Shown piece after piece: positions 4,471 to 55,782 of a DNA stretch of 64,000 nucleotides (position 1 is its first letter; each line of letters begins with the position of its first letter). The DNA lies in NCBI GenBank assembly GCA_018238375.1, contig JABCTJ010000008.1:5-64004 (forward strand). The letters are read 5' to 3'. A program made the position numbers and the translations under genes. The notes beneath the pieces are model-generated. The model had not been told where the DNA came from, ran no database searches, and saw only the letters and a program-made list of their open reading frames with translations. The DNA comes from Candidatus Thorarchaeota archaeon. Its GTDB lineage: Archaea > Asgardarchaeota > Thorarchaeia > Thorarchaeales > Thorarchaeaceae.

Positions 4471-5487
4471 TTAATCCCCACTCATCAGGGTTCGTAAGCG
4501 TTCCATTTCTGCGAGCATCTCAGACTGGAGAGAGCTCTTACCAGGTGCACCAGAAGGTTTCTCGCTTGAAGTGCCACCTGGAGGACCACTCGGGATTCCG
4601 CCACCTGGAGGACCGCTTGGAACACCGCTACTAGGTGCGCCTCCACCTGGAGGTCCGCCACCACTAGGTGCACCACCGCCTGGAGGTCCACCACTTGGAG
4701 CATCTACACTTGGAGATTCGCCACTAGGTACACCACCACCTGGAGGTCCACCACTAGGTGCGCCTCCACCCGGAGGTCCGCCACCACTAGGTGCACCGCC
4801 GCTAGGGGGTCCGCCACCAGGTGCGCCTCCACTTGGAGGGCCAGCTGAAGGAGCTGCTGCATCACTTGGTGTAACCGCAGCTGCGCTTGGTGCCCCAACG
4901 CTGGGCGGCCCTGACTCAGTAGTGTCTACTTCTACAGTGGTACCAGACATCGCTGCAAGTTTCCGAAGGTAATCAGATCGTGCTCGATCCATCGCGGAGT
5001 CTGCATCCACGACAGCCTTCAGCTCCTCGTCTTTGGCAATTGCAGCCTGTACAGCAGTAAGCCTGCCTTGATAGAGTGAAATAAGCTTGTCTTGAAGCGA
5101 GCTATCTATCTCGCCTTCTTGAGCGTAATAATCTACAGCAGACAGCGCCTGCTGTACAGCGTTCTCTTCCACCTTAAGGAAGACTAATGCCTCCCCAGGG
5201 GTCTTGATGAAACGCACCTTTTTCGTGCCTGCAATGCCCGAGCTAACATCTCCGGTTGATGCAATGATTCTCTGTACGCCATCAGGCAAGCCGCCGGCTG
5301 AGCCCTTGAAACGATAGGTGTACAAAAGAAACGCAATGACTACGACCATAGGCACAGTAACAACAATAACGAACCAAGCAATCGGCCCAAATGGTAAGGT
5401 TGGTTGGAACACGTTGGAGAGACCTCTGAATAGGTCCACGATAGCTTGAGTAAATTGGGGGTACCAATCCGATTGCAAATGTATCAC
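4471..5487 (-). CDS. Membrane-anchored protein with a coiled-coil region and a long Pro/Gly/Ser-rich repeat tract
   Basis: 338 aa. An N-terminal hydrophobic helix (PFGPIAWFVIVVTVPMVVVIAFLLYTY) is followed by a helical region and about 130 aa of PSGG(G)PPGGGA-type repeats. The C-terminal helix reads SLQSEMLAEMERLRTLMSGD. Confidence 0.6.
   Translation of the reverse strand: MIHLQSDWYPQFTQAIVDLFRGLSNVFQPTLPFGPIAWFVIVVTVPMVVVIAFLLYTYRFKGSAGGLPDGVQRIIASTGDVSSGIAGTKKVRFIKTPGEALVFLKVEENAVQQALSAVDYYAQEGEIDSSLQDKLISLYQGRLTAVQAAIAKDEELKAVVDADSAMDRARSDYLRKLAAMSGTTVEVDTTESGPPSVGAPSAAAVTPSDAAAPSAGPPSGGAPGGGPPSGGAPSGGGPPGGGAPSGGPPGGGVPSGESPSVDAPSGGPPGGGAPSGGGPPGGGAPSSGVPSGPPGGGIPSGPPGGTSSEKPSGAPGKSSLQSEMLAEMERLRTLMSGD
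4560..4870. repeat. Imperfect in-frame tandem repeats (about 30-33 bp period) encoding the PGG/PSG tract
   Basis: ccacctggaggtccgccaccactaggtgc-like units recur head to tail across this interval. Confidence 0.8.
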
Positions 5488-29817: not shown

Positions 29818-29834
29818 TAGAACACGTGTTCCAA
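29818..29834. promoter_or_regulatory. Palindromic box TAGAACACGTGTTCCAA (copy 1)
   Basis: The core GAACACGTGTTC is a perfect 12-nt palindrome. The 17-mer is identical to the copy at 30098..30114. Confidence 0.7.
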
Positions 29835-29891
29835 GCATTTCGATCACATATTACACAAATAGCTATCCATGTATTCGGCTAATATGACATA

Positions 29892-29916
29892 ACACCCCTT
29901 CATTTCCACTGGAGAA
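29892..29916 (-). repeat. ORB-like element (origin recognition box), G-string distal
   Basis: The minus strand reads TTCTCCAGTGGAAATGAAGGGGTGT: a TCCA-G-TGGA dyad, AAAT, a spacer and GGGGT. Confidence 0.65.
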
Positions 29917-30035
29917 TAGTATGTGAGATGCGTTGGGTGGTTATATATATAATATAATAAAATGGAGATAATCATCGGGTTCGAAAACATCTATATATAC
30001 TTTTCGACATCTATTCTTATCGATATCGCTCTTAT

Positions 30036-30057
30036 TTTCCACTGGAAATACAGGGGT
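30036..30057 (+). repeat. ORB-like element, inverted relative to 29892..29916
   Basis: The plus strand reads TTTCCACTGGAAATACAGGGGT. Confidence 0.65.
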
Positions 30058-30097
30058 TAGAGAGCTGCATTGATCGAAATAAACATGAAATGAGATT

Positions 30098-30114
30098 TAG
30101 AACACGTGTTCCAA
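30098..30114. promoter_or_regulatory. Palindromic box TAGAACACGTGTTCCAA (copy 2)
   Basis: Identical 17-mer to copy 1, placed symmetrically on the other side of the ORB pair. Confidence 0.7.
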
Positions 30115-30151: not shown

Positions 30152-30451
30152 TTATGTCACTTCTTCAAGTATTTCGAAGATTCGAATTGTCAGAATATCC
30201 TGATATGAGTTGAAGAGAGAATTAAATTCACCTTGATATTCTCCCGGTACAAAGATCGCAGAGTCAGCAACAGCTTCTGCACCTATGCACTCATCTAGTA
30301 ACCCTGGTTTTCGTTTTTGTTTGATCCCCGTCTTTGTCTTCCAGGAATACAAGAATCCGTAAAGCTCCTTGGTAAAAGAAACCCTTCTGGCATTTCTCTG
30401 ACGAGCATGTTTACAGTCATAGAGATAAACAAAATTTGCCATCTTTCTCAT
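30152..30451 (-). CDS. Small orphan protein (99 aa, or 96 aa from the second Met)
   Basis: An ORF between palindromic boxes 2 and 3. The sequence is MRKMANFVYLYDCKHARQRNARRVSFTKELYGF... and no family is recognised. Confidence 0.45.
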   Translation of the reverse strand: MRKMANFVYLYDCKHARQRNARRVSFTKELYGFLYSWKTKTGIKQKRKPGLLDECIGAEAVADSAIFVPGEYQGEFNSLFNSYQDILTIRIFEILEEVT

Positions 30452-30458
30452 CTAAAAC

Positions 30459-30473
30459 TAGAACACATGTTCT
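30459..30473. promoter_or_regulatory. Palindromic box variant TAGAACACATGTTCT (copy 3)
   Basis: Half-sites AGAACA/TGTTCT. It lies 8 nt upstream of the ATG of the 99-aa ORF (minus strand). Confidence 0.6.
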
Positions 30474-30588
30474 GATTTTTTAGTTCAAGTATTACAGGTA
30501 CAAGAGGGAAGGCTTAAAGCGGAAATGCATTGCTCAACAGCCGCCCCAGTCCTTGGGTCACATTCCCATCTTTCAAGGAGGAAATGTC

Positions 30589-31902
30589 ATGAACATCATT
30601 GGCCTGAGAAAAGAAGAGAAGATGTTCGAAACTAGAGTCCCTGTTGTTCCTGAGCATATCAAGCTCTTGAGCACCAAACATGGGATTCAGTTCGCTGTTG
30701 AACCGAGTAATCAACGCGCTTTTGGACCAGACGAATTTGAAAAAGTTGGCGCGCAGATCAAACCCCTAAAGGGAACAGAAGTTTCTGTGATTCTGGGAGT
30801 GAAAGAGATGCCCAACGACTTCTACGAAAAAGGAAAGACGTACGTTTTCTTCAGCCATACAATCAAGGGCCAGAAATACAATATGCCAATGTTGAAGAAA
30901 ATCATGAACGTAGGTGCAACTCTTATCGATTACGAACGCATTGTGAATGAGAAAGGGTTCAGATTAATCTTCTTTGGCAACTGGGCTGGCCTCGCAGGGA
31001 TGTCCGAAACATTTCGTATTCTGGGCTTAAGACTCGAGGTCGAAGGTATTAAACCGAATCCATTCTCTGGTATGAAACATACTGCACAATACAAAGACCT
31101 TAATGGACTCAAAAAAGGAATCCAAGCATTGGGCAAACGCATCAAAGAACAAGGTCTGCCTGACTCTTTGACACCTTTCATCGTTGGATTTGCAGGATAC
31201 GGGAATGTATCACGGGGTGCCCAAGAAATATTCGACATACTCCCATACGAAACAATAGAACCCAAAAACCTAGCCAATGTTACAGCAAAACGGGATCTGC
31301 TCTACAAATGTGTCTTCAAGGAAGAGCATATGGTAAAGCCGCTAAACTCCTCAGCAAAATTCGAACTCATGGACTATTACGAACATGGTGCTACGAAATA
31401 CAAGGGCAAATTCGAATCTTATATTCCTCATTTGACAGTACTAATAAATTGCATCTACTGGACGAAGAAGTCCCCACGTCTAGTTACAAAAAACTTCATC
31501 CGAAAGCACTGGAATAATTCTAATCGCCGCCTACGAATTGTCGGAGATATATCGTGTGATGTTAACGGCGCAATGGAATTCACTCTTCAGTGTACCGATG
31601 CTGGCGAACCCGCATTCACCTACCTTGTGGATGAAGATCGTGCGGTTTTGGGCGTAGAAGGTAATGGACCAGTTGTCATGGCAGTAGACAATCTCCCCAC
31701 AGAGCTTCCACGCGAATCATCCACTTCATTCAGCGAAACTCTGCTAGATTTCATACCTGCTCTAGCAAAGGCTGATTTCACAGTTCCTTTTAGTCAGCTC
31801 ACGCTTCCCAGAGAGCTCAAGGATGCAACGATTGTGTACAACGGAGAGCTGACCAAGAATTACGAATACCTCAAAAATCACTTGCTAACCAAGGAGAATT
31901 AA
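30589..31902 (+). CDS. Lysine-ketoglutarate reductase-type saccharopine dehydrogenase (AlaDH/PNT fold; LKR half of eukaryotic AASS)
   Basis: MNIIGLRKEEKMFETRVPVVPEHIKLL, TYVFFSHTIKGQKYNMPML, LIDYERIV, FGNWAGLAGM and GYGNVSRGAQEIF are collinear with the LKR domain of animal AASS as I recall it. The ATG at 30589 is preceded by GGAGG. Confidence 0.8.
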   Translation: MNIIGLRKEEKMFETRVPVVPEHIKLLSTKHGIQFAVEPSNQRAFGPDEFEKVGAQIKPLKGTEVSVILGVKEMPNDFYEKGKTYVFFSHTIKGQKYNMPMLKKIMNVGATLIDYERIVNEKGFRLIFFGNWAGLAGMSETFRILGLRLEVEGIKPNPFSGMKHTAQYKDLNGLKKGIQALGKRIKEQGLPDSLTPFIVGFAGYGNVSRGAQEIFDILPYETIEPKNLANVTAKRDLLYKCVFKEEHMVKPLNSSAKFELMDYYEHGATKYKGKFESYIPHLTVLINCIYWTKKSPRLVTKNFIRKHWNNSNRRLRIVGDISCDVNGAMEFTLQCTDAGEPAFTYLVDEDRAVLGVEGNGPVVMAVDNLPTELPRESSTSFSETLLDFIPALAKADFTVPFSQLTLPRELKDATIVYNGELTKNYEYLKNHLLTKEN

Positions 31903-31904
31903 AA

Positions 31905-33221
31905 ATGCAAAAAGTACTCTGTCTTGGTGCGGGTCTCGTAGCCCGCCCGTACATTCAATACTTGTGCAAACATGGATTTCATGTCATTGTGGCCAGTCGA
32001 ACAAAAAGCAAGGCCGAGCGATTGATTGAAGGGTGTAAGAGCGCAGAAGCTGTCGCCCTGAATATCAAGACCGATGATGAACTACTTGACAAGCTAGTTG
32101 CCAAAGCTGACCTGACTTGTTCGTTGCTACCTTACACATATCACGTGAAAGCTGCAAAACTAGCAATCAAATATCGCAAGCCATTCTGCACGACTTCATA
32201 CATTTCTGATGAAATGCAGGCCCTAGATGATGAGGCAAAGAAAGCAAGAATCTTGGTACTGAATGAGTGTGGAGTTGATCCTGGAATCGATCACATGAGT
32301 GCCATGAAGATAATCGATGACATTCACAACAAGGGCGGCAAGGTCATAAGTTTCACATCTTTTACTGGAGGACTTCCTGCTCCTGATGCCAATAACAATC
32401 CATTTGGTTACAAACTCTCTTGGAGTCCAAGAGGCGTTCTTCTTGCAGGCAGAAACGATGCACATTTCCTGCGTGACGGCAAGGATGTAGTGATTCCGGG
32501 TCCTGAACTCTTTGATAATTATGAAATCATGGAGGTTCCAGGTATGGGGAAGTTTGAAGGATATCCCAATAGAGACAGTACATCCTACATTGACATCTAC
32601 AATATATCAGAAACAAAAACAATGCTACGTGGAACCTTCAGAAACCCCGGTTGGTGCAGCACTCTCAAGAAAATTGCAGATTTGGGTCTACTAGAACTTG
32701 ATGAACATGTCTTTGAAAATATGACATACGCAGATATAATGCGTAAGCTGATAGATTCCAAAAATGGCGATATACAAGGCGCAGTTGCTGAAGCAGCCGG
32801 TCTCAAGAAGAGTGACCCAATCATTTCCCGTCTGGATTGGCTTGGCCTCTTCAATGATACAGAGATTCCTTCGAATGTTACAACATATCTCGATGCACTA
32901 TGTCATCTCTTTGAAGAGAAGCTGCAGTATGCTCCTGGAGAACGTGACATGATAGTCATGCATCACGAGTTTATAGCAGAGTACAGTGATAGGAAGGAGA
33001 AGATAACATCAACACTGATTGACTATGGTATTCCAAATGGTGACAGCTCAATGTCAAGAACTGTTGCACTACCTGTAGCAGTAGCAAGCAGAATGATACT
33101 TGAAGGGAGAATCAACCTAACCGGAGTCCACAGACCAATCATATCTGAACTATACGAGCCGATTCTAAACGAACTTGAAAGCCTTGGAATCAAGCTTGAA
33201 GATCGCATTACAGCACTGTGA
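31905..33221 (+). CDS. Saccharopine dehydrogenase (NADP+, L-glutamate-forming; SDH half of AASS)
   Basis: 438 aa. KVLCLGAGLVARPYIQYL, GVDPGIDHMSAMKIID, GGLPAP, NPFGYKLSWSPRGVL and EGYPNRDSTSY. It starts 2 nt after the LKR stop. Confidence 0.85.
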   Translation: MQKVLCLGAGLVARPYIQYLCKHGFHVIVASRTKSKAERLIEGCKSAEAVALNIKTDDELLDKLVAKADLTCSLLPYTYHVKAAKLAIKYRKPFCTTSYISDEMQALDDEAKKARILVLNECGVDPGIDHMSAMKIIDDIHNKGGKVISFTSFTGGLPAPDANNNPFGYKLSWSPRGVLLAGRNDAHFLRDGKDVVIPGPELFDNYEIMEVPGMGKFEGYPNRDSTSYIDIYNISETKTMLRGTFRNPGWCSTLKKIADLGLLELDEHVFENMTYADIMRKLIDSKNGDIQGAVAEAAGLKKSDPIISRLDWLGLFNDTEIPSNVTTYLDALCHLFEEKLQYAPGERDMIVMHHEFIAEYSDRKEKITSTLIDYGIPNGDSSMSRTVALPVAVASRMILEGRINLTGVHRPIISELYEPILNELESLGIKLEDRITAL

Positions 33222-33307: not shown

Positions 33308-33934
33308 TTACTTACCAATTTGTATCTGAATCGCTGCCAATACCTCTTCTGCTCTCTCAATGTCGCTTTGAACCTCTGGCAGCTCTGTCTTGAGACGGTA
33401 TGTATAACCTGATCTGTTGCCATGTCTCTCTAGATGCGCTTCACCGTTATTCCACATCCGTGCGAGGTACGTTGATGCAGTACTTTTCGGCAAGTCTTCC
33501 TCAAACGTAGATTCATAGATCTCTGCCACATCCAATGATGAGAACTTTCCATGTTTGAACGAGGCATAGATTATCATCTGCATCTTCTCATAGTTGCTCA
33601 TAGATTCATAGCTAATGTTTTCGAAATTAACATCTGCCAACTCTTCAACTGTTGGGGCGAATATGCAGCCTGTACTAGTTTCTAAGAACACCTTAAACTT
33701 TCCAACCATCTCTTCGGGATTCCCTTTTACTTGGAAGCTTGATTCTTCTCCAGTCGATTCATCAGAAACTAGAATCTTGAAATCAAAAGGCGATTGGGTA
33801 AGTGAAAGAATCTTTTGAAACCGATTGAGAGCTTCATCTGGCCTGACATATTTACATTGAAAGATCTCGCGCAAACCAGGTCCTGAGCTATATGTGAACT
33901 CGTAAACGTAATTGGTTCTTTCACCTTCCGCCAT
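33308..33934 (-). CDS. Hypothetical protein with a C-terminal winged-helix-like domain
   Basis: 208 aa. ..LDVAEIYESTFEEDLPKSTASTYLARMWNNGEAHLERHGNRSGYTYRLK fits helix-turn-helix plus a wing. Confidence 0.45.
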   Translation of the reverse strand: MAEGERTNYVYEFTYSSGPGLREIFQCKYVRPDEALNRFQKILSLTQSPFDFKILVSDESTGEESSFQVKGNPEEMVGKFKVFLETSTGCIFAPTVEELADVNFENISYESMSNYEKMQMIIYASFKHGKFSSLDVAEIYESTFEEDLPKSTASTYLARMWNNGEAHLERHGNRSGYTYRLKTELPEVQSDIERAEEVLAAIQIQIGK

Positions 33935-34138
33935 GATTTCATCATTCCCCGAATAAGCGGTCTATATTATTGCTATTCACAACGAATTACACACATTCCA
34001 CAAATAAATGTGAGTATGTGAATTACCAATACCTGGATAAGCGCAAGATATTGCGCCTGTATACGTTCAAGACCCCCCTGTCACGATTTTCCTGTGATGG
34101 CATGTTCTACACTCCGTAATGAACATAATAAGGCCTAT

Positions 34139-34163
34139 CCGCCCCTTAACTGGAAAAATAAGC
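34139..34163 (-). repeat. Degenerate ORB-like half element
   Basis: The minus strand reads CTTATTTTTCCAGTTAAGGGGCGG. The half-dyad TTCCAG and the G-string are retained and the TGGAAA half is missing. Confidence 0.35.
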
Positions 34164-34244
34164 GATTATTCCATATCTTCAAGCATTCACTAGAATATGT
34201 GGCTTGTGAATAGCCTATAGGGGATAAAGAGCTCTTCTTACTCA

Positions 34245-34268
34245 GTTCCAGTGGAAACGGAGGGGTGT
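34245..34268 (+). repeat. ORB-like element (best match in the window)
   Basis: The plus strand reads GTTCCAGTGGAAACGGAGGGGTGT: dyad, AAAC, GGA and GGGGT. Confidence 0.7.
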
Positions 34269-34414
34269 GTCCATTCACAAGGATGAACGGCATTATGAAC
34301 CCCTTTTACATACAATAAAGGCTCATAGCTCCCTATTTCTCTGGACAATTCACAATTATGGCGCCATTCACAACAGAATGATGTGAATTAGTGTTAATGT
34401 GGTGAATATGATAA

Positions 34415-54283: not shown

Positions 54284-55477
54284 ATGCCCCGCGATTATGT
54301 TGAGGAAGAACTGGGTCGACACAGTGTATTCAAGGCAGAACAATTTCTATCCATAGACTATGTCCCTGAAGTTCTTCCACATCGAGAACTAGAACTAAGG
54401 ACTTTGGCACAGAGCTTCAAGACACTCATAACAACTCCAGGGCGCACCAGTCAGCGATTTATAATTGAAGGTCCAGTCGGGACCGGCAAGACTGCCGTTG
54501 CGAAACGTTTCACAGAACAAATGGTTCAAGCCGCTGAGAGACGCGGAATTCGTCTGCATAAGCTTCACATCAACTGCAGGATTAACAAGAGTGAGTACCT
54601 AGTATACTTACGAATGCTAAGAGAATTTAAACCGAAATTTCCCCGTCGAGGCCATTCACCCGAAGAGCTTTTGCAAATGCTAGTTGAAGTCCTAGACATG
54701 GAGGACCGGTATCTGCTCCTGATTCTAGATGAACTTGACTACTTCATCAATCAGAGGGGGGCTAACATTCTATATGACCTTACACGTCTAATGGATGATC
54801 GATTGAATGCGCCACAACGGCTTTCCATGATTGCGGTAGGACGAAACATCCCTCTAGACCGGGACACCCTCGATTCAAGTATTTTAAGCACGCTCCAGCG
54901 GAATCTTATGCGGTTTGAGAGATACAGTTCAGAAGCTCTCTATGCTATTCTGGAAGATAGAGTAAAGATTACTTTCAAGAATGACACAATAATGGACGAA
55001 ACACTGCAGGTAATTTCTGACATCGCATCAGAACATGGAGATGCCAGATACGCCATCGAACTACTGTGGCGAGCAGGAAAACAGGCTGATCGTAGCCGAG
55101 TTAGAGTCGTAATTCCCGATTATGCTCGCCAAGCAAAGGTTGACACACATCCCGAGCTCCGGAAGGAAATTTTCGCAACACTTCCCATTCACAACAAGCT
55201 AGTCCTTCTGGCTGCAGCGAGACAACTCAAGGAAGTTAGGAGTGCTTACGTGACAATGGGGGAGGTTGAAGAGATGTATAGAGCAGTCTGCGAGGAGTAT
55301 GGCGAAGAGCCACGGGCACACACTCAAGTCTGGGAATGGGTTCAAAATCTTAACGCACATGGTGTAGTAGATACAAAGCGCTCTGGAGCGGGCCAAAGAG
55401 GGCAGACCACACTCATTGGCCTTTCTGATGTGCCTGCCGAGATGTTAGAACGATTTCTTTTGGAACTGCTAGAATAA
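54284..55477 (+). CDS. cdc6: Orc1/Cdc6 replication initiator
   Basis: 397 aa. YVPEVLPHRELELRTL, IIEGPVGTGKTAVAKRF, LLILDELD, GDARYAIELL and a C-terminal winged helix. Confidence 0.9.
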   Translation: MPRDYVEEELGRHSVFKAEQFLSIDYVPEVLPHRELELRTLAQSFKTLITTPGRTSQRFIIEGPVGTGKTAVAKRFTEQMVQAAERRGIRLHKLHINCRINKSEYLVYLRMLREFKPKFPRRGHSPEELLQMLVEVLDMEDRYLLLILDELDYFINQRGANILYDLTRLMDDRLNAPQRLSMIAVGRNIPLDRDTLDSSILSTLQRNLMRFERYSSEALYAILEDRVKITFKNDTIMDETLQVISDIASEHGDARYAIELLWRAGKQADRSRVRVVIPDYARQAKVDTHPELRKEIFATLPIHNKLVLLAAARQLKEVRSAYVTMGEVEEMYRAVCEEYGEEPRAHTQVWEWVQNLNAHGVVDTKRSGAGQRGQTTLIGLSDVPAEMLERFLLELLE

Positions 55478-55485
55478 TCCATGAT

Positions 55486-55782
55486 GTGGTGACCCCTATG
55501 GATTTGCAAATACAGACCAAGATTCCCATTGAAGAGCTATTCTCTTCGAGGGGGCGAATCAAGATAATCAAAGAACTTGCAACATCAAGCGAGCTAAACA
55601 TCACAGAACTATGCAAACGCGTAGGCCTTAATCATAGCTCAACAAAACAACATCTCACGGTCCTTATGAAAACCGGCCTTATTGAAGAGAAGGTCTTTGG
55701 AAGAATCAAGATCTATAGATATCGCATCGAGGACATACGTGCCCGTTCTCTTAGGAATCTCATTGATTTGTGGGAATCATAA
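55486..55782 (+). CDS. ArsR-type winged-helix transcriptional regulator
   Basis: 98 aa. RIKIIKELATSSELNITELCKRVGLNHSSTKQHLTVLMKTGLIEEK. Confidence 0.7.
   Translation: MVTPMDLQIQTKIPIEELFSSRGRIKIIKELATSSELNITELCKRVGLNHSSTKQHLTVLMKTGLIEEKVFGRIKIYRYRIEDIRARSLRNLIDLWES

Follow-up and report, generated by a model that had tools for sequence, protein, structure and literature searches.

A probable Orc1-responsive operator platform of an origin-linked winged-helix factor in Thorarchaeota

Overview

We analysed the intergenic spacer at 33935-34414 in a 64,000-nt stretch of DNA (the window; positions are counted from its first letter) from a Candidatus Thorarchaeota archaeon (GenBank assembly GCA_018238375.1, contig JABCTJ010000008.1). 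The spacer lies upstream of the gene for a 208-aa winged-helix (wH) protein and contains one full origin recognition box (ORB), here named ORB3, within an array of short TTCACA boxes. Comparison of orthologous loci demonstrates that these sites are real and far beyond chance, that their positions are conserved from Thorarchaeota to Heimdallarchaeota, and that they have been retained together with the gene through rearrangements. In our view, the spacer probably serves an origin-linked wH DNA-binding factor as a conserved operator platform that responds to Orc1. Which proteins bind the sites, and with what output, we infer from the sequences. The output may be transcriptional (autoregulation with Orc1 input), replicative (as part of a bipartite origin) or both.

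The window corresponds to contig C100 of a 2.5-Mb genome that is assembled in 282 contigs, with a completeness of 92.6%. The nearest homologues of the 208-aa protein carry the label Candidatus Thorarchaeota. The spacer and its surroundings contain the following features:

33308..33934, minus strand: 208-aa wH gene, taken from the listing of open reading frames (ORFs); the spacer lies upstream of it
33935-34414: spacer of 480 bp between two minus-strand genes
33975..33982, plus strand: box 1, ATTCACAA, promoter-proximal and near the inferred transcription start; its TTCACA is invariant in an alignment of 10 genera
34001..34023, minus strand: block CAAATAAATGTGAGTATGTGAAT, near-invariant in the 10-genus alignment
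34139-34163, minus strand: proposed degenerate half-ORB, judged non-functional (score below 10 with the matrix described below; columns unconserved among genera)
34185..34211: inverted box pair ATTCAC-N15-GTGAAT, about 50 bp gene-ward of ORB3, both arms invariant
34245-34268, plus strand: ORB3, full ORB GTTCCAGTGGAAACGGAGGGGTGT, composed of the dyad TTCCAGTGGAAAC, GGA and the G-string GGGGTGT
34273..34280, plus strand: box ATTCACAA, 4 nt past the G-string of ORB3, invariant
34348..34407: distal cluster ATTCACAA-N4-GGCGCC-ATTCACAA-N8-TGTGAAT-N13-GTGAAT, which comes within 8 nt of the next gene's stop codon
34415-35425, minus strand: 336-aa nucleotidyltransferase-like (NTase) gene, Pfam NTP_transf_2; the spacer lies downstream of it

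ORB3 is the single full ORB of the spacer

An earlier note on this DNA, made from the letters alone, had described the spacer as free of ORFs of at least 60 aa and as the place of the best ORB match in the window. Both statements hold: no such ORF exists between 33935 and 34414, and the 13-nt core of ORB3, TTCCAGTGGAAAC, is the sole match with zero mismatches in the window as well as in the entire genome. The segment GGA-GGGGTGT (34259-34268) makes this site a full ORB rather than a mini-ORB, and its G-string is directed away from the wH gene.

We built an ORB weight matrix from 44 Asgard ORBs and scanned the whole genome with it. There are only three high-scoring full ORBs, two of them at the origin core near 29.9 kb that is described further below (38.2 at 29891, minus strand; 32.7 at 30035, plus strand) and the third being ORB3 (37.5 at 34244, plus strand), and the next-best score in the genome is 23.8. 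This fourth site, AATTGCAGCTGAAACAAAGGGGTTGA at position 5118 of contig C174 (plus strand), resembles the variant TTGCAGTTGAAAC of another Asgard family.

The flanks of ORB3 are 58-63% AT, compared to 78-80% at the 29.9-kb core. We found no AT-rich unwinding element in the spacer, whose AT maximum per 60 bp is 72% and is located at the promoter. A search of the spacer for further dyads gave nothing beyond the reverse reading of ORB3 itself, and no mini-ORB repeats. The note had also proposed an inverted half-ORB at 34139-34163. Since this element scores poorly and its columns are unconserved, there is no inverted ORB pair in the spacer.

TTCACA boxes and the inferred promoter

The boxes are the second component of the spacer. 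The five direct ATTCAC copies (33975, 34185, 34273, 34348 and 34366) and four inverted GTGAAT copies (34018, 34206, 34383 and 34402) that had been counted before were recovered, so that nine occurrences within 33975-34407 stand against 0.35 expected (Poisson P = 1.5e-10). Five of the 15 copies of ATTCACAA in the window fall in the spacer. It is the sole site in the genome with at least three ATTCACA copies per 200 bp, and neither a further box cluster nor a regulon was found when the whole genome was searched. The few ATTCAC-N-GTGAAT pairs elsewhere in the genome all lie inside coding regions. The boxes are 6-8 bp long and occur in mixed orientation, at irregular intervals that range from 18 to over 100 bp.

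Another repeat, ATTACACA, had been noted both in the spacer and beside the 29.9-kb module. The copies do exist (the second one starts at 29850, not at 29849), but their number does not exceed chance: the window contains four copies versus 2.1 expected, 16 of 100 shuffles reach four, and the copy in the spacer falls in unconserved columns.

Read on the gene strand, the near-invariant block at 34001..34023 becomes ATTCACATACTCACATTTATTTG and comprises box 2 and a TGTGAG half-box, followed directly by the TATA-like TTTATTTG. We infer that the wH gene has its core promoter and operator in this block and that box 1 lies near its expected transcription start. A heavily regulated promoter, one of three options considered in the earlier note, is the closest of the three.

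Conservation among Thorarchaeota

The comparison of the spacer with orthologous loci, which the note had proposed as a test, found the repeats conserved in register. It comprised 20 loci of the same family, which represent 16 genera and have protein identities as low as 63%. All 20 loci possess an ORB approximately 310 bp upstream of the wH gene in the same orientation, and the boxes are found at identical offsets in all of them, including the position of box 1 (20/20). A phylum-wide search added 30 Thorarchaeota loci, which come partly from the same genomes as the first 20, and the ORB is at the same place in each of them (30/30).

The alignment of 10 genera reveals invariant islands amid diverged sequence, which is the pattern of a footprint. 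These islands are box 1, the block CAAATAAGTGTGAGTATGTGAAT, the ATTCAC-N15-GTGAAT pair, ORB3, the box 4 nt past the G-string, the combination TTCACAA-N4-GGCGCC-ATTCACA, in which GGCGCC (34360-34365) is itself invariant, and two TGTGAA boxes. The gene beyond the spacer varies by genus (NTase, cysteine-desulfurase-like or GlmS), with the full 480 bp being retained. To judge from these loci, the wH gene and the spacer behave as a unit through rearrangements.

The islands are DNA sites and not parts of an RNA, since neither an Rfam match nor covariation was found. An Rfam scan of 29-36 kb gave one sub-threshold chance match and nothing else. RNAalifold on the 10 genera detected no covariation in the spacer (covariation term +0.4 kcal/mol), and the "pairs" that it drew are the invariant inverted boxes. 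An RNA gene in the spacer was therefore rejected.

The same data bear on the idea that the motifs arose by chance, or that the spacer is a decaying remnant of an old origin or of a plasmid iteron region. The half-ORB and ATTACACA are indeed at chance level. However, ORB3 and all nine boxes are conserved position by position, in the family and beyond. A decayed origin is contradicted by the strict conservation in 50 of 50 Thorarchaeota loci and across Asgard classes, together with the conserved synteny. As for a plasmid remnant, the boxes are not phased iterons of 17-22 bp, there is no Rep gene and no Rep-like domain, and the synteny is that of a conserved chromosomal locus. The conservation data refute this explanation, to which we assign practically no probability.

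ORB and boxes in other Asgard families

For the wider comparison, we examined 23 loci from other Asgard families. TTCACA/TGTGAA motifs occur upstream of the wH gene at 6.4 per kb versus 0.66 per kb elsewhere (P = 1.6e-59). At 15 of the 23 loci there is an upstream ORB at 244-600 bp with its G-string pointing away from the gene; 14 of these ORBs are located at 244-393 bp and the remaining one (locus L038) at 600 bp from the called start. One locus with an ORB is situated on the closed chromosome CP070695.1, which is labelled Heimdallarchaeota. Finer details of the array are shared as well: the spacing between the inverted pair and the ORB is kept in other Asgard classes, the juxtaposition of a box with the G-string recurs in distant Asgards, and the TTCACA-N-GGCGCC combination, which exists at one site in the genome studied here, recurs in other Asgard classes.

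In one family (f7), the boxes are replaced by GTTAAC in register relative to the ORB. In all three f7 proteins (3/3), the second residue of the recognition helix is V rather than T. This co-change of sites and protein suggests that the wH protein reads the boxes.

The 208-aa winged-helix protein

The AlphaFold2 (AF2) model of the 208-aa protein has a mean predicted local distance difference test score (pLDDT) of 78.7 and consists of two beta-beta-alpha units (residues 9-88), a disordered acidic linker (95-106), the wH (114-181, with helices at 114-162 and the wing at 168-181) and a long C-terminal helix (186-207). Distant homologues have one beta-beta-alpha unit only. The C-terminal winged helix that had been proposed from the sequence is thus borne out by the AF2 model and by Foldseek.

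The top Foldseek matches are RosR, PadR, MecI, BlaI and LmrR, with E-values of approximately 3e-3 and template modelling (TM) scores on the target of approximately 0.55. C-terminal wH domains of Cdt1 appear at ranks 19 and 38 (E approximately 0.015-0.03), below many bacterial regulators, and are indistinguishable from a generic wH. TubR is found at rank 42. Searches of the 208-aa protein against Pfam and NCBIfam gave no family match. Seven of 16 family members show weak matches to Penicillinase_R (best E = 0.0036) that are below the curated threshold. A profile search against the PDB gave nothing above threshold for the wH protein (best E 0.06), and Pfam/NCBIfam scans of the protein and its family found no Rep, primase, HUH or CDT1 domain. 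As modelled, the protein most resembles dimeric regulators of the PadR/RosR/BlaI type and not the tandem-wH proteins Cdt1 and WhiP. An identity as a WhiP- or Cdt1-like protein, on which the earlier note had speculated, is unsupported, given the lone wH of the model and the lack of a CDT1 family match.

The wH family comprises 383 clusters at 50% identity. Of 201 Asgard genomes, 148 carry the gene, which is usually present once per genome. The named members belong to Thor-, Hel-, Hod- and Sif-archaeal metagenome-assembled genomes. Methanosarcinales CopY-like proteins match the wH part alone.

The fold of the protein and the number of its candidate sites also recall centromere-like elements. The spacer could be an origin-proximal segregation site that is coated by the wH protein, comparable to AspA/pNOB8 or TubR/tubC. 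Approximately ten sites for one factor extend over about 430 bp beside the origin and the factor's gene, the array is unique in the genome, and TubR is among the fold matches. However, no conserved gene for a ParA-, SegA- or TubZ-type NTPase accompanies the locus, as the neighbours vary; the embedded ORB and the fixed register would be left unexplained, and the fold matches are those of a generic wH. We consider a segregation site very unlikely.

The origin core and the ancestral origin locus

The other two high-scoring ORBs belong to a separate module in the same window, which is neighboured by a second conserved gene:

29891..30060: origin core, with ORB1 (29891-29916, minus strand), an AT-rich element (approximately 29933-29995) and ORB2 (30035-30060, plus strand)
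30152..30451, minus strand: 99-aa gene (orf99), the other conserved Asgard origin-linked gene; its 3' end abuts ORB2

The AT-rich element of the core, with 78-80% AT, is the most AT-rich stretch of the window. The two ORBs are inverted with their G-strings distal, and the pair is conserved in relatives. By this arrangement, the 29.9-kb module is a canonical origin core of the type ORB, DNA unwinding element (DUE), ORB. The GC skew in the window turns at approximately 28-34 kb, a resolution that cannot separate 29.9 from 34.2 kb. The distance from the core to ORB3 is 4.2 kb.

In most Asgards, the spacer is only about 1 kb away from such a core. Synteny indicates the ancestral order orf99 (95-100 aa, 3' end abutting the ORB), ORB1-DUE-ORB2, often a small wH gene, the homologue of the 208-aa protein (140-175 aa), the spacer with ORB and boxes (approximately 450-500 bp), orc1/cdc6 and the gene for the small subunit of PolD (DP1). 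The link of the wH gene to the origin is thereby confirmed, since in other Asgards the gene is situated between the ORB-DUE-ORB core and orc1/cdc6. In the Thorarchaeota family studied here, LKR/SDH genes are located between orf99 and the wH gene, and the origin-type orc1 sits with dp1 on contig C203. The Orc1 encoded there is 53% identical to the origin-linked Orc1 of a closed Asgard genome of 1.42 Mb. The polarity of the ORB relative to the wH gene is the same whether the gene faces the DUE or not, which means that the polarity follows the gene and not the unwinding element.

This layout has to be considered when judging whether the spacer might be an independent second origin, with the wH protein as a dedicated initiator according to the logic of Sulfolobus oriC3/WhiP. 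A gene and a cis-array that move as a unit resemble a replicator-initiator pair, the ORB is of full strength, and the Cdt1 wH domains at Foldseek ranks 19 and 38 could be cited in the same sense. On the other hand, the single ORB has no conserved inverted partner, an AT-rich unwinding element is missing, and in most Asgards a canonical ORB-DUE-ORB core is found only about 1 kb away. Moreover, the protein has one wH and not a tandem, and it has no CDT1 family match. A second origin, which the earlier note had entertained, therefore appears highly improbable.

A different replicative role is conceivable in a bipartite origin, in which ORB3 and the wH-bound boxes would, for example, load or position a further Orc1/MCM, or license or inhibit firing of the core by looping, and in which the wH protein would be an origin-binding accessory factor. 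This explanation overlaps with the operator platform and differs from it in the output. It is consistent with the ancestral position of the array, about 1 kb from the core and adjoining orc1, with the retention of the distal box cluster even where it faces no promoter, and with the box that abuts the G-string, which suggests direct interplay with Orc1. The array is also unique in the genome, and the satellite ORB3 of Thermococcales is bound by Cdc6 in vivo. However, the polarity of ORB3 follows the wH gene and not the DUE, the array is 4.2 kb away from the core in this family, and some lineages keep the wH gene without an ORB. We regard a bipartite origin as possible, though clearly not as the likely case. 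With the same reserve, it is conceivable that Asgards, including the Heimdallarchaeia as the closest to eukaryotes, control the replication of their chromosome with a second origin-specific factor besides Orc1/Cdc6, namely this wH protein, which would coat a TTCACA array interdigitated with a satellite Orc1 site. The origin would then be bipartite, and protein and DNA would co-evolve, as the in-register change to GTTAAC in family f7 suggests.

Neighbouring genes and further initiator loci

The orf99 product is confidently modelled by AF2 (pLDDT 92.5, predicted TM-score (pTM) 0.80), with a ferredoxin-like fold. Nothing in the PDB matches it significantly (LrpC comes first with E = 0.03, and Cas2 is at rank 38), and Pfam has no family for it. 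The orf99 family of 95-100 aa is Asgard-wide, and the 3' end of the gene abuts an origin ORB wherever both were found; homologues are present at loci L033-L038, L075, L077, L081, L085 and L086. The palindrome GAACACGTGTTC, a motif distinct from the TTCACA boxes, flanks the ORB1-DUE-ORB2 core on both sides (29820-29831 and 30100-30111), and its variant AGAACACATGTTCT is located just upstream of the 99-aa gene (30460-30473).

The LKR/SDH pair of the saccharopine pathway (30553-33221) is a family-specific insertion that splits the ancestral origin locus. Neither the same-order genome G025 nor other Asgard classes have it at this place. In the closed Asgard genome of 1,418,269 bp (locus L034, G026:C1, approximately 622.3-625.6 kb), the ORB pair is found together with orf99, the wH gene and orc1. 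The strong ORB and most of the boxes have disappeared from its wH-orc1 spacer, in which only remnants such as TTATTCATAATTAAGCGCCA are left. Many Asgards possess, beside the origin or orc1, a small gene for a winged helix-turn-helix (wHTH) protein of 74-97 aa with the motif ...PRTT(L/V)YD...GRP.(V/I)(Y/F)Y... (seen in L034, L037, L039, L040 and L072-L087). No homologue of this small gene was detected in the genome studied here, which is 92.6% complete.

On contig C203, three mini-ORB-type dyads, CTCCATTCGAAAC, GTTCCTGTGGAAT and CTTCCAGTGGAGG, lie approximately 21 bp apart at about 5153-5207. They have no G-string and are located immediately upstream of the origin-type orc1/cdc6 gene beside the gene for the PolD small subunit. 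They are probably the initiator's own control site after its move from the origin. The window itself encodes an orc1 paralogue (54284-55477, 397 aa) that is 27.5% identical to the origin-type Orc1 and has no ORB nearby. Directly after it follows an ORF of 98 aa (region 54284-55782), which by eye resembles an ArsR-type wHTH protein.

Proposed mode of action and points against it

In the explanation that we favour, the spacer would be the cis half of a two-part module, consisting of the platform and the adjacent wH gene, of the ancestral Asgard origin locus. The platform would present one predicted high-affinity site for Orc1/Cdc6 (ORB3), surrounded at fixed distances by 9-10 (A)TTCACA(A) boxes, of which several form inverted pairs. 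A dimeric PadR/BlaI-like wH protein would occupy the boxes, and the product of the adjacent gene is the likeliest candidate. As the TATA-like element of the wH promoter has a box on either side, this binding would result in autoregulation. Orc1/Cdc6 bound at ORB3, with a box abutting its G-string side, would supply an input from the state of the initiator, and both proteins together might form one nucleoprotein complex of approximately 430 bp. DNA unwinding would take place at the ORB1-DUE-ORB2 core at 29.9 kb and not at the platform. With regard to the history of this family, the LKR/SDH insertion moved the platform to a distance of 4.2 kb from the core, and orc1-dp1 moved to another contig.

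Several points weigh against this explanation. The factor that reads the boxes could be a protein other than the wH product. The correlation between the T-to-V exchange and the switch of the boxes is confined to one clade and thus represents a single evolutionary event. Five of the 23 distant loci have no ORB within 650 bp, and at three of the 23 the ORB is in the opposite orientation. ORB3 is approximately 220-240 bp and the distal cluster approximately 350-400 bp away from the inferred promoter, which is far for the ordinary control of an archaeal promoter. These distances, together with the retention of the sites where no promoter is faced, suggest more than simple autoregulation, for instance replication control, architecture or segregation.

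It should also be considered, by analogy to other archaea, that a gene can be linked to an origin without this proving that it acts in replication. Haloarchaea keep the conserved oapABC (ArvABC) genes, which encode a small GTPase and its partners, beside oriC/orc1 across their lineage, similar to the genes discussed here, and the origin-associated OapA drives vesicle formation (PMC10927574). The role of Oap/Arv in vesicle formation is a warning against deducing a replication role from origin linkage. The oap genes were rejected as possible relatives, as the proteins are unrelated.

Comparison with known systems

The closest precedent of the spacer is the satellite ORB3 cluster of Thermococcales (Matsunaga et al. 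2007, PMC1904270), where dp1 contains ORB3 and mini-ORBs, with cdc6 lying between them and oriC. In Pyrococcus, Cdc6/Orc1 binds this cluster in vivo and in vitro with an affinity similar to that for the core ORBs (PMC1904270). Both systems have a full ORB that lies outside the core, is separated from it by one gene and is conserved throughout an order or phylum, and they share the ancestral neighbourhood of oriC, orc1 and dp1. There are also clear differences. The Asgard satellite ORB is intergenic and single, without mini-ORBs, and it is embedded in an array of an unrelated second motif (TTCACA). Moreover, the gene between the ORB sites encodes a wH protein and not Cdc6, and the polarity of the Asgard ORB tracks this wH gene.

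In its type, with a TTCCAGTGGAAAC dyad and a G-string, ORB3 matches the two ORBs of its own core and those of canonical archaeal origins (Sulfolobus oriC1, Aeropyrum ori1, Pyrococcus oriC). Unlike these origins, the spacer has no inverted partner, no unwinding element and, in this family, no adjacent initiator gene. WhiP is a Cdt1-like initiator that is encoded beside Sulfolobus oriC3, and both WhiP and Cdt1 have tandem wH domains. The spacer shares with oriC3/WhiP the position of a wH gene beside a cis-array with an Orc1-type site and their joint inheritance. However, the 208-aa protein combines one wH with an unrelated N-terminal beta/alpha domain, the spacer lacks an unwinding element, and we detected no sequence relation.

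The likeness to the PadR, RosR and BlaI-MecI-CopY regulators concerns residues 114-207, which are modelled as a wH followed by a C-terminal helix, and the inverted half-sites of 6-7 bp that bracket the gene's own TATA-like element, as in PadR/BlaI autoregulators. In contrast to these regulators, the 208-aa protein is below any Pfam threshold and has an extra N-terminal domain, and the array spreads approximately ten sites across about 430 bp where these regulators have one or two operators, with an Orc1 site within it.

Meaning for Asgard archaea

To our knowledge, no Asgard replication origin has been defined experimentally. Our literature search found no publication on the ORB layout of Asgard origins or on this wH family. 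The data define a phylum-wide cis/trans module that consists of an ORB-DUE-ORB core, the 99-aa gene, the wH gene and a satellite ORB in an array of boxes. This module provides precise DNA probes and two small proteins from the archaeal lineage that is closest to eukaryotes. If it is true that the wH factor modulates Orc1 at the origin, it would add a new layer to the control of initiation. If the wH protein is no more than an autoregulator, the spacer would still show a deeply conserved cis-regulatory grammar of a kind rarely seen in archaea.

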